Source: a virus
Lineage: Duplodnaviria > Heunggongvirae > Uroviricota > Caudoviricetes
Length of the DNA stretch: 22,786 nt
IMG/VR virus record: IMGVR_UViG_2547132415_000008
Coordinates: 1-22,786 of that record
Reading direction: 5' to 3' (one strand)
A program made the position numbers and the translations under genes. A model generated the notes under the pieces. The model was not told the origin of the DNA. It ran no database searches and saw only the letters and a list, made by a program, of their open reading frames with translations. This document shows positions 2,947 to 19,097 of this stretch, one piece after another. Position 1 is the stretch's first letter. Every line of letters begins with the position of its first letter.

Positions 2947-4315
2947 TCCGGCTTTACGTAGTTTCTGGACTACGCGGGCACGTAACAAAGTGCTTTATGG
3001 TGGCCGGTCATCGTCAAAATCATGGGATGCCGCTGGCATTGCCATATTTCTGTCGAATAAATACACTCTGCGTTTTTGTTGTGCCCGTCAGATCCAGAAC
3101 AAAATCGAAGAGTCGGTGTATACCCTGCTCAAAATTCAGATAGACAGGTTTGGCCTGCGGCACCGTTTCCGTATTCTGAACAACAAAATCATTAACCGGG
3201 TTACTGGCTCGGAATTTGTTTTTTATGGATTATGGCGCAACATCGAAGAAATTAAGTCACTGGAGGGGATCGATGTGTTGTGGCTGGAAGAAGCCCACGC
3301 ACTGACGGAATACCAGTGGAAAATTCTGGAGCCAACGATCCGTAAAGAGGGGTCGGAATGCTGGTTCATATTCAACCCCGGACTTGTTACTGATTTCGTC
3401 TGGCGCAACTTCGTTGTTGATCCGCCCGAAGGCACTCTCATCCGCAAAATTAACTATGACGAAAATCCGTTTCTGTCTGACACCATGCTTAAGGTTATCG
3501 ACGCGGCGCGACGCCGTGATCCGGATGGTTTTAAACATGTGTATGAGGGCGTTCCGGAGTCTGATGATGATGCGGCAATCATCAAACTGTCCTGGATAGA
3601 AGCCGCAGTGGATGCGCACAAAACGTTAAATTTCGAACCCAGTGGAAGAAAGCGTATTGGCTTTGACGTGGCTGACAGTGGTACAGATAAGTGCGCTAAC
3701 GTTTACCGTCACGGATCCGTTGTTTTCTGGGCCGACGAATGGAAGGCCAAAGAAGATGAATTACTGAAGAGCTGCCAGCGTACTTATCAGGCGGCGCTGG
3801 AGCGTGAAGCAGATATTGTTTACGACTCTATCGGTGTTGGTGCGTCTGCCGGTGCTAAATTCTCTGAAATTAACGCTGACCGGAAGAGCGAGAATGCATA
3901 CGCGAGACGAGTGAATTACCAGAGGTTTAACGCCGGTGCTGGTGTGCATGAGCCAGATGACGAATACAACGGCATCCCCAACAAAGACTTTTTCGCAAAT
4001 CTTAAGGCTCAGGCATGGTGGCTGGTGGCTGACCGTTTCAGAAATACGTTTAACGCCATTAACAACGGAGAACAGTATCCTGTGGATGAGCTGATCAGCA
4101 TAGATTCTAGTTGTCCGTTGCTTGAAAAGCTGAAACTGGAACTGACAACACCTCATCGCGATTTTGACCGTAACGGACGTGTGATGGTCGAAAGTAAAAA
4201 AGACCTCGCAAAACGCGAGATACCGTCACCAAACGTTGCTGACGCATTCATTATGGCCTTCGCGCCAATTGATACATCGCTGGATATCTGGGAACAGCTG
4301 GGGAGACAGGCCTGA
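2894..4315 (+). CDS. Terminase large subunit (ATPase plus nuclease)
   Basis: Walker A-like YGGRSSSKSWD near the N-terminus; acidic nuclease-type motifs downstream; size about 470 aa. Start uncertain (ATG 2894 or 2912; the track ORF begins at 2804), overlapping the terS 3' end. Stop overlaps the portal start (TGATG). Confidence 0.85.
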   Translation: MESVTSMTSTLTSKPTLNPALRSFWTTRARNKVLYGGRSSSKSWDAAGIAIFLSNKYTLRFCCARQIQNKIEESVYTLLKIQIDRFGLRHRFRILNNKIINRVTGSEFVFYGLWRNIEEIKSLEGIDVLWLEEAHALTEYQWKILEPTIRKEGSECWFIFNPGLVTDFVWRNFVVDPPEGTLIRKINYDENPFLSDTMLKVIDAARRRDPDGFKHVYEGVPESDDDAAIIKLSWIEAAVDAHKTLNFEPSGRKRIGFDVADSGTDKCANVYRHGSVVFWADEWKAKEDELLKSCQRTYQAALEREADIVYDSIGVGASAGAKFSEINADRKSENAYARRVNYQRFNAGAGVHEPDDEYNGIPNKDFFANLKAQAWWLVADRFRNTFNAINNGEQYPVDELISIDSSCPLLEKLKLELTTPHRDFDRNGRVMVESKKDLAKREIPSPNVADAFIMAFAPIDTSLDIWEQLGRQA

Positions 4316-6420: not shown

Positions 6421-7641
6421 ATGAAATATTTTTTCAATACCCGGCTGGGGGAAACCCGCTATCAGCTGGCTGACGGCTCGTTGCTGTGCAGAGACGTGCC
6501 GATAGGACGAACAGGTAAGCAGCTCTATGGTGCTGATGACCTGCCAAAACTGAAACCCGATAAGTTCGGTGAAATAGTCGTCACGCGTTCTCCTGAGCAG
6601 GTATTCCATCCGGCCACGCTTGCCTCATTCGAAGGGATGAGCATCACGATTCTGCATCCTGAAGATGAAAACGGGAATGTGCGGCTGGTAAATCCCGAGA
6701 ACTGGAAAGAGCTTGCTGTCGGGCACCTCCAGAATGTTCGGCGCGGGACGGGTGAGCTGTCTGATTTGATGCTGGCTGACCTTATCGTCAAAGACGAAAA
6801 CGCCATTCAGCTTATCGAAGATGGCCTGCGCGAAGTGTCGTGCGGCTATGACGCGGAGTACGAGCAGACCGAGCCAGGTAAAGCTGAGCAGGTCGATATT
6901 ACCGGAAACCATGTGGCTCTTGTCCCTAAAGGCAGAGCCGGAAATCGTTGTGCAATTGGAGACAGAGACACAATGGCAAATCAAAAGAAAAGCTGGTGGA
7001 ACCGCATGCGTGCGGCCATCAAGACAGGAGATGCCGACACCATGAACGAACTGGTGGAGTCGGCTCCCGCATCGGTTACAGGAGATGAGGGGGATTTGCC
7101 GCAGGGCGTTAATCTCAATATCAACCTGTCCCCGCAGCAACCACTACCGGACAAAGCACCAGAGATGGGGGGAGGTCCAACCGGCGACAGTGATGATGAC
7201 CTCAAAACATTACTGAAAGCCCTGCTGGCTAAGCTGGAAGGAAATGCCACGGGCGATAACGACAATAAGTCTGACGATAATCCGACCGGTGACGGCGAGG
7301 ACGATGAAGAGGAAACCACGATTACTGGTGACTCAGCCTGGCGTGCCGAAGTTATCGTTCCGGGTATCGATCTGAGCCGTAAGATGAAACCGACCGCGTT
7401 CAAACGCGAGGTTCTGGCTTCTGCTGACAAAACACTGGTTCGCCAGATAGTCGGTGATGCGGATATCCGCAAATTACCGAAACAATCGGTCGACATGGCG
7501 TTTAATGCCGTATCTGAGATTGCCAAAGGGCGAAACACCCGCGCCACCACCGGCGATGCACAGCGCCCAAACATGGGCATGACCAGCATCGCTTCCCTGA
7601 ACAAACAAAACGCTGAATTCTGGGCAAACCGTAAAGGGTAA
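6421..7641 (+). CDS. Putative scaffolding / prohead-processing protein with acidic low-complexity central tract
   Basis: 406 aa between morphogenesis and capsid genes; central D/E/G-rich tract; coiled-coil-like C-terminal part. Function by position only. Confidence 0.45.
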   Translation: MKYFFNTRLGETRYQLADGSLLCRDVPIGRTGKQLYGADDLPKLKPDKFGEIVVTRSPEQVFHPATLASFEGMSITILHPEDENGNVRLVNPENWKELAVGHLQNVRRGTGELSDLMLADLIVKDENAIQLIEDGLREVSCGYDAEYEQTEPGKAEQVDITGNHVALVPKGRAGNRCAIGDRDTMANQKKSWWNRMRAAIKTGDADTMNELVESAPASVTGDEGDLPQGVNLNINLSPQQPLPDKAPEMGGGPTGDSDDDLKTLLKALLAKLEGNATGDNDNKSDDNPTGDGEDDEEETTITGDSAWRAEVIVPGIDLSRKMKPTAFKREVLASADKTLVRQIVGDADIRKLPKQSVDMAFNAVSEIAKGRNTRATTGDAQRPNMGMTSIASLNKQNAEFWANRKG

Positions 7642-17382: not shown

Positions 17383-17724
17383 ATGAGGGGTATTATTTTT
17401 CTGTTAGCTGTCTTTTCTGCGTGCAGCGCGTGGGCGGATGGCTTCACGGTTAAATGCGGTGGCTACACTATGGTTGCAAACCAGGGCGAGTTATCGACTA
17501 TCAACGGTGAAAGAGTTACCTCTCAAAAAATCACCGAACTGGGTACCAATGGTTTGAAAGTAGACATGGGGCTTATGCCTGCCAAAGACGGTAACAACTA
17601 CGGCTTTGAATACATTCGTCGCCCTGGTACCGAAACGCGATTCCTGAATATCCAGCTTCTGCAGAACAGCATGGATGCGCCGAAAATCATCGGATCTTTC
17701 CCTTGTAAAAAAGTGGCTGGGTGA
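17383..17724 (+). CDS. Small secreted protein or lipoprotein with N-terminal signal peptide (moron candidate)
   Basis: 113 aa; MRGIIFLLAVFSACSAWADG has a hydrophobic core, a lipobox-like FSAC and an AWA-DG signal peptidase I site. Two further Cys in the mature part. Not expected for a virion tail component. Confidence 0.6.
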   Translation: MRGIIFLLAVFSACSAWADGFTVKCGGYTMVANQGELSTINGERVTSQKITELGTNGLKVDMGLMPAKDGNNYGFEYIRRPGTETRFLNIQLLQNSMDAPKIIGSFPCKKVAG

Positions 17725-17750
17725 AGGTAACCTGAAATTCGTAACGCCTG

Positions 17751-17789
17751 AAAAACAACAAAATGTGCTCTAAAAACTGTTGTTTTTTG
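17751..17789 (+). terminator. AT-rich hairpin with T-run, weak candidate terminator upstream of the cassette
   Basis: AAAAACAACA (17751..17760) pairs with TGTTGTTTTT (17778..17787); loop is 17 nt; T-run follows. Weak. Confidence 0.3.
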
Positions 17790-17809
17790 AGACGAGCGAT
17801 TACACTGCA

Positions 17810-17850
17810 CTGACTTTTTGATGGTGGATTGCCATCGATATGCTACTTCA
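17810..17850 (+). promoter_or_regulatory. Possible cassette promoter (TTGATG -35-like at 17818..17823, TATGCT -10-like at 17839..17844)
   Basis: Hexamers read by eye; spacing is 15 bp, which is suboptimal. Low confidence. Confidence 0.2.
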
Positions 17851-17873
17851 TTAAAGCCAGGAATAACTAAAAC

Positions 17874-18605
17874 ATGAGTTTAGCGCAGCCAAAATCAGGA
17901 GAACTGTTAGATCTTCTGACTCCTTCATTAACTAAGGGTGAAAACCTTCTGAGTGAGTTTGAAATCCATCGAATCATTCGTGAAGCGAAGAAACTACCTG
18001 AACGTTATCAGGGGCTATCAATTGAAGGCTTAGCTAAGCTTGTTCTTGGTGAAATAGATGAAGGATGTTCACTCTGTGAGCGGGGGTTGAGAATAGCGCC
18101 TAACGATCCAGTTTCTTTTTGTAACTATACGATTGCGCTGCGTAACTTAGGTTTGCATGCTCGCCAGTATGTGATGATTCAGAAAGCATCTGATTCACTT
18201 AATCCAACGATATTGGCTGAGGTTGCTACAATTTCTGCATACTGGGTTGATATCGATTTGCTTGAAAAGGTGATGCCGATGCTAACTGCAATGGAAGTAC
18301 CGCGCCCTGAAGATATGGGCAAATGGTATGACACGCTCAATTATCTGCATACCCAAAAAGATCATGCTCAGGAGCTAAAAACTATTGGGCGGCTCATGAT
18401 GAACGTTGCAGAAAAGTACCGCGCTCGTCTTGCTGGCGCTCATGCTTTTTATGTAATGTCAGAACTTGATACGCTGTTCGTTGAAGTCAAAACAGACGAT
18501 CCAGTGCTTCTTTCGCAGATGAATAATGCCTTGGCTGATGAGATTATTATTGCGGGGCTTGCGGATTCAGAATGCGTCGGATGCTTTGAAGCCGGGGAAC
18601 TCTAA
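17874..18605 (+). CDS. Cassette gene A: uncharacterised 243-aa protein, helical, TPR-like segment and two CxxC motifs
   Basis: ATG 17874 with AGGAATAA upstream. Lower GC than flanking tail genes by eye. CSLC near residue 64 and CVGC near residue 232; segment GLRIAPNDPVSFCNYTIALRNLGLHARQYVMIQKA looks TPR-like. Stop overlaps gene B start (TAATG). Confidence 0.7.
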   Translation: MSLAQPKSGELLDLLTPSLTKGENLLSEFEIHRIIREAKKLPERYQGLSIEGLAKLVLGEIDEGCSLCERGLRIAPNDPVSFCNYTIALRNLGLHARQYVMIQKASDSLNPTILAEVATISAYWVDIDLLEKVMPMLTAMEVPRPEDMGKWYDTLNYLHTQKDHAQELKTIGRLMMNVAEKYRARLAGAHAFYVMSELDTLFVEVKTDDPVLLSQMNNALADEIIIAGLADSECVGCFEAGEL

Positions 18606-19033
18606 TGTCGGTTGAGCATACCTGTTTTCTTGAATTGGCTAAGCATTCCCTGGCTCTAAACGGTGAGATGTGGACGAGAAATGCTATTAGCCGAGCATAC
18701 TATGGTATGTACCATTCCGCCTTACGGATCACCAACAATCTGGTACCGACCGCTACACAAGATGGTGAAAAACTAAAAGGTGGAGTTCACATGCGAGTCT
18801 ATACGGCCTTTTGTAGTGGTGAGGCAGCTGCACTTAACGATGTTGATGTTAACGCAGTAAAGAAAATCGGCGTTAAACTGAAAATGACGCATGCCCAACG
18901 TGTTAATTCTGATTACAAGCTTGAGCGGAAAATCAACCGGATTACCGCGAGAAGTGTAATTCTGGATGCGGAAGAGGTCGATGCAATCGTTAATCAATTA
19001 CTGAAGATTGGTGATGACTCGTTAACTGCATAA
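18605..19033 (+). CDS. Cassette gene B: uncharacterised 142-aa protein with HEPN-like R-x6-H motif (RAYYGMYH)
   Basis: Translationally coupled to gene A; low GC by eye; followed 22 nt later by a strong intrinsic terminator. Motif RAYYGMYHSALRI resembles the HEPN helix signature from memory; unverified. Confidence 0.7.
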   Translation: MSVEHTCFLELAKHSLALNGEMWTRNAISRAYYGMYHSALRITNNLVPTATQDGEKLKGGVHMRVYTAFCSGEAAALNDVDVNAVKKIGVKLKMTHAQRVNSDYKLERKINRITARSVILDAEEVDAIVNQLLKIGDDSLTA

Positions 19034-19054
19034 GCTGAAATTTCTCAAAATTCA

Positions 19055-19078
19055 AACCCGCCACTTGGCGGGTTTTTT
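19055..19078 (+). terminator. Rho-independent terminator closing the cassette
   Basis: AACCCGCC (19055..19062), loop ACTT, GGCGGGTT (19067..19074): 8-bp GC-rich stem followed by TTTT. Confidence 0.8.
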
Positions 19079-19097
19079 GCTTTCTGGAGCCTACTAA

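Follow-up and report, generated by a model that had tools for sequence, protein, structure and literature searches.

Ribonucleases of the HEPN type recur as effectors in bacterial immunity; Cas13, Csm6, HepT, AbiV, and HepS are examples. In the 2013 survey of the HEPN superfamily, the Rx4–6H motif is placed where core helix 3 ends and the loop leading to helix 4 begins, and an accessory acidic residue, usually within E-x3-[KR], is placed in helix 2 (PMC3710099). The AF0298-like proteins and AbiV have a second conserved His, contributed by an insert between helices 2 and 3, which may form an alternative active site; for HEPN-T (PF05168), Table 1 of the survey records that "D replaces conserved H" (PMC3710099). 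HEPN-T proteins occur either stand-alone or in fusion with MNT, and HEPN genes as first defined are typically neighbors of MNT genes (PMC3710099). Here, we analyze gene B and its upstream neighbor, gene A, in a 22,786-nucleotide stretch of a Caudoviricetes record (IMG/VR IMGVR_UViG_2547132415_000008, positions 1 to 22,786), referred to below as the window. We consider it probable, at roughly 0.6, that B is the HEPN-T effector half of a mobile A-B module that benefits the lysogen as a toxin-antitoxin (TA) or abortive-infection system. The two genes are as follows.

17874..18605, + strand: gene A, 243 aa, uncharacterized family, partner of B (putative antitoxin or sensor).
18605..19033, + strand: gene B, 142 aa, stand-alone HEPN-domain protein, AF0298-like (PF05168 / UPF0332), putative RNA-targeting effector.

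An initial annotation of this DNA had given the same 142-aa open reading frame (ORF) for B, at 18605 to 19033 on the + strand, and had proposed that it is a stand-alone HEPN domain with an R-x6-H ribonuclease signature, naming a profile search and a structural comparison with HEPN folds as the check. RefSeq labels A and B alike as "hypothetical protein," and the PHROG to which B belongs is of unknown function. Close homologs of B (48 to 88% identity) are found in Enterobacterales, some of them labeled "UPF0332 family" by JGI, and, at E ≤ 1e-3, an exhaustive search with the B-family profile returned 1128 representatives, of which nearly all have 115 to 150 aa. Conservation counts given below refer to 73 sampled relatives of B (E ≤ 3e-9). 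Pfam PF05168 HEPN is matched by 24 of them (best, 1.4e-7) and PADLOC HEPN_IX by 28. Against PDB sequences, phmmer with B returned no match, and a narrow family profile (A1) found 2hsb only, at E=0.14. A wide profile built from the 73 relatives (A3) reached 9xbd (1.6e-10), 9xbc (2.1e-9), and AF0298/2hsb (1.6e-6); the link of B to the PDB is therefore significant only with the wider profile. Foldseek on B placed the structures in the same order as the profile search, with weaker statistics. Since the Pfam, PADLOC, and PDB profile matches agree with Foldseek, the HEPN fold of B is well supported.

Profile similarity thus places B in the HEPN superfamily, and both parts of the proposed check, which led to 9xbd, 9xbc, and 2hsb, bear out the stand-alone HEPN domain. 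By each feature tested, B is, as judged from its sequence, a divergent AF0298-like "HEPN-T" member (PF05168 / UPF0332). It is a new member of a known family, with a fold that is unsurprising for prophage cargo. A 243-aa predicted protein encoded on a 2132-bp ENA contig (P0022) shares 89% identity with B across 65% of the length of B and also carries FAD/NAD-binding Pfam domains; this contig is probably chimeric or misassembled and does not represent a true fusion.

The AlphaFold2 model of B has helices at residues 21 to 40 (helix 2), 61 to 71 (the insert), and 82 to 104 (helix 3). Four sites on these helices bear on the position of a potential active site.

18665..18679, + strand: E21-x3-R25, helix 2 N terminus, in agreement with the accessory HEPN motif E-x3-[KR].
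18692..18715, + strand: R30-AYYGMY-H37, middle to C-terminal part of helix 2, conserved in the family and off the canonical catalytic position.
18779..18790, + strand: H62, candidate substitute catalytic His, at the start of insert helix 61–71.
18899..18916, + strand: R99-V-N-S-D103-Y104, C-terminal end of helix 3, the canonical position, where the Arg is retained but there is no His.

E21 and R25 are invariant (73/73), so that B has the acidic helix 2 residue found in AF0298-like proteins. H62, kept in 72 of the 73 relatives, aligns with the His of 9xbd ("SSH") and of AF0298 ("KTH") and would represent the conserved alternative His of the helix 2–3 insert. All 73 relatives retain R99 and Y104 at the C-terminal end of helix 3, and 72 retain D103; the stretch aligns with RNRSDY of 9xbd and REESDY of 2hsb. 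As in AF0298-like proteins, the motif Arg is retained and the His is replaced by a nearby Asp. According to the profile alignments, H62, R99, D103, and Y104 are identical residues in both 9xbd and 2hsb, and together with E21/R25 they make up the set that B shares with its solved relatives. This set matches the alternative site proposed for AF0298-like HEPN proteins. The missing canonical His does not exclude B from HEPN, since the survey accepts His-less families (PMC3710099).

The two PDB entries 9xbd and 9xbc ("HEPN domain-containing protein") differ by a Tyr-to-Phe change (RNRSDY versus RNRSDF) at the residue aligned with Y104. This suggests that the depositors regard the Y104 equivalent as functionally important, in work that is ongoing; a literature search for PDB 9XBD/9XBC returned only four unrelated papers and none on these entries.

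The initial annotation had located the ribonuclease signature elsewhere, at R30 and H37. The residues RAYYGMYH are present at positions 30 to 37 within NAISRAYYGMYHSALRI, and the helical context that had been suggested for them agrees with the AlphaFold2 helix 21–40. This is the only R-x4-6-H in B. The pattern itself is without statistical weight, because at least one match occurs in 57% of residue shuffles of B. A HEPN RNase with a catalytic dyad formed by R30 and H37 would accord with the conservation of both residues in the family (70/73 and 72/73, respectively), with a spacing of seven residues that puts them on one helical face, and with the existence of HEPN families that have alternative active sites (PMC3710099). 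However, the pair lies in helix 2, whereas the canonical motif is found where helix 3 ends. The profile alignments show Thr at position 30 in AF0298 (2hsb) and Tyr at position 37 in 9xbd, while H62, R99, D103, and Y104 are kept in both. Moreover, the topology of an up-down bundle sets the beginning of helix 2 (E21/R25) against the last residues of helix 3 (R99–Y104), and H37, 16 residues on in helix 2, is therefore expected at the far end. We regard this dyad as quite improbable; as a HEPN catalytic signature, R30-x6-H37 is a chance-level pattern, neither residue of which is kept throughout the nearest solved relatives, and it is probably a conserved helix 2 feature of the family, either structural or substrate contacting. 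Thus, the right fold had been reached for an invalid reason. Because R30 and H37 are off the canonical site and the shared residues lie elsewhere, R30A and H37A are probably the wrong mutants; the informative residues would be H62, R99, D103, Y104, and E21, and not R30 or H37.

A site without the canonical His may also mean no catalysis. The main rival to an effector role, which we nevertheless judge unlikely, is that B is a non-catalytic HEPN protein, namely an RNA or nucleotide binder, an adaptor, or a regulator, and that A carries the activity or is regulated by B. Analogues that have been proposed to be non-catalytic are MtlR, the HEPN domain of human sacsin, and nucleotidyltransferase C-terminal domains. 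Yet in relatives as distant as about 25% identity, about ten polar or aromatic residues of B stay near-invariant; this points to a defined site and not to a plain binding surface. In addition, A has neither an enzyme fold nor a conserved catalytic-looking constellation, and AbiV, a structural neighbor of B in the same clade, is an active RNase. These observations favor B as a predicted effector, and we discuss it as such below.

Gene A encodes TPR-like helical repeats (about residues 7 to 181) followed by a small beta-beta-alpha-beta C-terminal domain (residues 186 to 240), and few of its residues are conserved. Its stop codon shares one base with the start codon of B (TAATG), an overlap that fits translational coupling. 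To describe how consistently the two genes occur together, we use 43 B-like loci taken from one-genome-per-species contigs and metagenome look-ups. An A-family ORF is located directly upstream of B in 38 of these loci once an iterative profile built from A has converged (22 in the first pass). These upstream ORFs encode 244 to 335 aa, apart from a few fragments of 72 to 128 aa, and the two genes overlap or are separated by at most 16 nt (−35 to +16 nt). Homology of the partner to A can be recognized even where B is only 32 to 40% identical to the B of the window (BLASTP, 1e-24; hhalign, 96%). Partner identity is not universal, since two partners were not recovered as A-family: the 249-aa partner in locus L010, in which similarity to A is undetectable (hhalign probability, 1.5%), and the partner in locus L042, which was missed by the iterative A profile. 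The cotranslation of B with a larger partner, also foreseen in the initial annotation, is consistent with this coupled and strongly conserved arrangement, which fits the idea of an effector with an antitoxin or sensor. In 17 of 18 loci, A has diverged more rapidly than its partner, and the mean identity to the window pair is 28% for A and 37% for B.

The A-B pair is distributed among Proteobacteria and at least one Bacteroidota metagenome-assembled genome (MAG), with representatives in Enterobacterales, Shewanella, Betaproteobacteria, Methylococcales, and one Cytophagales MAG. It is found in myovirus-type and lambda-like tail clusters, in early regions, and in several prophage types, and its neighbors in some loci are Ogr/Delta, YafO, Fic, KilA-N, or SNIPE genes. 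The pair also adjoins the conjugation gene trbL and occurs as an isolated insert among housekeeping genes (MFS-mutS and macB-opuA) of Beta- and Gammaproteobacteria. Both genes are rare in isolated phage genomes, with a B-like gene in three records and an A-like gene in one. In L006/L007 (2121–4441), which belong to another prophage type, A-B directly follows a YafO-toxin pair, with the tape-measure gene just downstream and a Fic gene nearby, forming a toxin-type moron stack. Yersinia phage YP3 (PV092592.1; L002 3595–4395) has an A-family gene of 266 aa (E=4e-19) at the hub-spike site and lacks a B-like gene downstream of it. This orphan A may be an antitoxin-like counter-defense gene or a decayed module.

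The pair has the generic features of a TA or abortive-infection module, in that the two genes are linked, co-oriented, overlapping, mobile, and patchily distributed. A tight mobile overlap with a fast-evolving non-enzymatic first gene and an enzyme-like second gene is a TA/abortive-infection signature. The same modularity would be expected if the pair were a plain addiction or selfish TA module, or counter-defense cargo, that gives the host no protection against phages, possibly with A as the toxin and B as its antidote. Stand-alone A-B inserts among housekeeping genes and beside trbL resemble selfish TA modules in this regard, and the A-like gene of YP3, without B at the same site, is what an orphan antitoxin or a counter-defense gene might look like. 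We nonetheless find this explanation rather unlikely. The gene order, with a fast-evolving binder first and a conserved enzyme-like protein second, fits B as the toxin, and the strong preference for prophage cargo sites beside toxin modules recalls prophage defense genes such as HepS (PMC13043305). PADLOC PDC-M05B was considered as a possible identity and rejected, since only 2 of the 73 B relatives match it and A matches no PDC-M05 component.

Taking B as the effector of a module that benefits the lysogen, the following mechanism may be proposed. B is probably an RNA-targeting toxin. It would form dimers, as other HEPN proteins do, and would bind or cleave RNA with no need for metal ions, through a site formed by R99/D103/Y104 at the end of helix 3, H62 of the helix 2–3 insert, and E21/R25 at the start of helix 2. 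A, translated first from the common transcript, would bind B and hold it inactive as a protein antitoxin; alternatively or in addition, A may sense a phage or stress cue, such as a phage protein, via its repeat surface. Release of B would then lead to translation arrest, and the pair would act as a TA or abortive-infection module that protects the lysogen population or stabilizes the element.

The genomic setting of the pair can be described more precisely. The window corresponds to the part of an E. coli prophage that encodes the tail and baseplate, and this prophage is related to Salmonella phage SEN34 (Brunovirus). It has lambda-type early and regulatory genes, and its integration site adjoins torT in strain WAT. 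Two features delimit the cargo.

17727..19053, + strand: variable cargo cassette with conserved prophage flanks on both sides, defined by homology breakpoints, GC content, and genome counts.
19054..19085, + strand: intrinsic terminator, a 9-bp G+C-rich stem plus a T run, from a scan and folding.

The cassette measures 1.33 kb and has A and B as its sole genes. It is flanked on the left by the baseplate hub gene and a 113-aa ORF and on the right by the spike gene. Homology to related E. coli prophages and to phages SEN34 and YP3 ends at 17711–17726, just beyond the stop codon of the 113-aa ORF, and is resumed at 19052–19056, and the GC content of the cassette is 40 to 46%, versus 50 to 56% in the flanks. 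Among 353 E. coli genomes having both flanks, 32 carry A-B as the cargo. Of the other prophages examined at this site (loci L047 to L050), L047 has a divergent A-B allele (256 and 131 aa), L048 has a 190-aa protein and a YafO-family toxin, and L049 has an A-like gene with an unannotated ORF resembling B downstream; a DUF4282 protein or further small hypothetical proteins are also found. Since the same flanks enclose varied cargo in other prophages, the hub-spike junction is a cargo hotspot within the late operon. The B-like HEPN ORF of L049 (1971–2366; NZ_HG994850.1, about 1334161–1334556, minus strand) matches the hidden Markov model at E=5.7e-27 and is absent from the RefSeq annotation.

The position of A-B between the hub and spike genes, in the orientation of the late operon, could be taken to mean that both proteins act in the assembly of the prophage tail or baseplate. 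We reject this explanation: close prophages have no A-B or have unrelated cargo at the site, the GC content of the cassette is atypical, and the pair is also found in tail clusters of the siphovirus type, within early regions, and at sites outside prophages. Furthermore, we know of no structural role for the HEPN fold in virions.

The terminator hairpin (19054–19075) has a folding energy of −17.1 kcal/mol (z, −3.7), and none of 200 shuffles was equally stable. It belongs to the conserved right flank, because homology in prophages with other cargo restarts at 19052–19056, at the start of the stem. The prophage of the window encodes a Q-family antiterminator, and the terminator should therefore halt only transcripts initiated inside the cargo. 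The arrangement of the cassette would correspond to the classic "moron" layout.

Some further observations concern the left side of the cassette. A hairpin at 17745–17800 (+ strand), A/T rich, followed by a T run, and located just within the left end, was considered as a terminator and rejected as weak (−10.4 kcal/mol; z, −1.8). The 113-aa ORF (17383–17724, + strand) is kept between the hub gene and the hotspot in all related prophages and hence belongs to the flank, not to the cassette. By eye, its N terminus resembles a lipobox-containing signal peptide (LLAVFSAC). The ORF matches PHROG 3443, of unknown function, and is called "STY1065/STY2022 family phage-derived protein" in one RefSeq record. 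In three distant cassettes (L004, ~7150–7190; L009, ~7210–7250; L015, ~4180–4220), A is preceded by a promoter-like TTGAAA-17 nt-TAAACT sequence. Its spacer contains an inverted repeat, ATTRCC...GGYAAT, like an autoregulated TA operator, and the window copy is without a clean repeat.

Several results weigh against B as the effector of a lysogen-benefiting module. The canonical R-x4-6-H is not found at the end of helix 3, where no His follows R99, and certain His-less HEPN domains are thought to be non-catalytic (PMC3710099). On its own, B matches no Pfam or NCBIfam model and has a single weak match in PADLOC, HEPN_IX at E=0.0094; neither A nor the A-B pair matches a PADLOC defense system. The promoter scan returned no + strand sigma-70 consensus upstream of A. 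The iterative A profile could over-include repeat proteins, yet only B-adjacent ORFs were recovered with it. The location of H37, which should be at the end of helix 2 opposite the E21/R25–R99 cluster, derives from helix topology only. Finally, the toxicity, RNase activity, and defense role of B are predictions made from sequence and structural models.

The A family and its fixed link to a His-less HEPN branch are not described in the libraries and literature searched. Accession numbers WP_000110002 and WP_000050470 are not listed in the DefensePredictor supplements, of which 8 of 12 files were covered in full, and the HEPN protein of DefensePredictor DS-28 is a different protein of 163 aa. 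Full-text literature searches for HEPN with UPF0332, for HEPN with COG1895, and for the two accession numbers returned nothing. Tentatively, A-B may be an undescribed and widespread two-gene immune or TA family, in which a TPR-like protein restrains the effector and senses the phage, the HEPN site is the non-canonical H62/R99/D103/Y104, and the insertion site is a new defense hotspot. If so, this would be the first functional assignment, with a partner logic, for the large "UPF0332" HEPN clade without a catalytic His, and it would make the junction of the baseplate hub and spike genes in SEN34-like prophages a defense hotspot. The pair offers a tractable E. coli system for an alternative His/Arg/Tyr site, a non-enzymatic repeat-protein partner, and the hub-spike hotspot. 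The analysis of B also corrects which residues are worth mutating, and in annotation B could carry the label HEPN-domain protein. What makes the pair a reasonable experimental target is the undescribed yet conserved partner of B, along with the non-canonical site.

How does A-B compare with known systems? Among AF0298-like HEPN-T proteins (2HSB and 9XBD/9XBC), B is divergent, falling below the Pfam threshold and sharing about 18% identity with 2HSB, and its branch is tied to a TPR-like partner instead of MNT. Neither a biochemical function for 2HSB nor an established activity for the large His-less AF0298/UPF0332 branch was found in the literature searched. B also differs from the type VII system HepT-MntA, since none of the 43 B loci has a nucleotidyltransferase partner and none of the 11 partners tested matches a Pfam nucleotidyltransferase model. 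The R-x4-H-x-Y motif of that system, with its AMP-accepting Tyr, is not found; in its place, B has R99-x3-D-Y104, in which the Tyr is invariant and the His is missing. Neutralization by AMPylation is therefore not expected, because there is neither an MNT partner nor an R-x4-H-x-Y in B.

Two further systems resemble A-B in their setting. HepS, from the Gifsy-1 prophage of Salmonella, is like B a prophage-encoded HEPN accessory gene of Enterobacteriaceae; it is an effector held inactive and triggered by a phage structural protein (PMC13043305). Unlike B, HepS has the canonical R100-H105, is a solo gene, and forms a tetramer (PMC13043305). It is absent from the PDB sequence matches of B. AbiU2 HEPN genes are predicted by comparative genomics to form an operon with a Sel1-repeat protein gene (PMC3710099, Table 1). 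They share with A-B the combination of a HEPN gene and a gene for a helical-repeat (TPR/Sel1-type) protein. In contrast to B, AbiU2 keeps the canonical Rx4–6H, and no sequence relationship between the two was found.

PADLOC-DB holds an AbiV model, and no AbiV model is among the PADLOC matches of the 73 B-family members at E ≤ 0.01. The resemblance between B and AbiV is structural and functional only, with no sequence membership. For AbiV of Lactococcus, the nearest structures include 2HSB, 1UFB, and 3O10, and its R91-x5-H97 is located in a flexible middle segment and not at the canonical site (10.1101/2024.05.05.592566). AbiV is an anti-phage abortive-infection effector that degrades rRNA in vitro (10.1101/2024.05.05.592566). 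Unlike B, it has ~200 aa and an RNA antitoxin (abiV2, type III), whereas the partner of B is a protein. Like B, it has 2HSB, 1UFB, and 3O10 among its nearest structures, and its functional His is in an insert between core helices, as is the candidate His (H62) of B. Since AbiV degrades rRNA in vitro, a HEPN protein from the structural neighborhood of B can be an active RNase.

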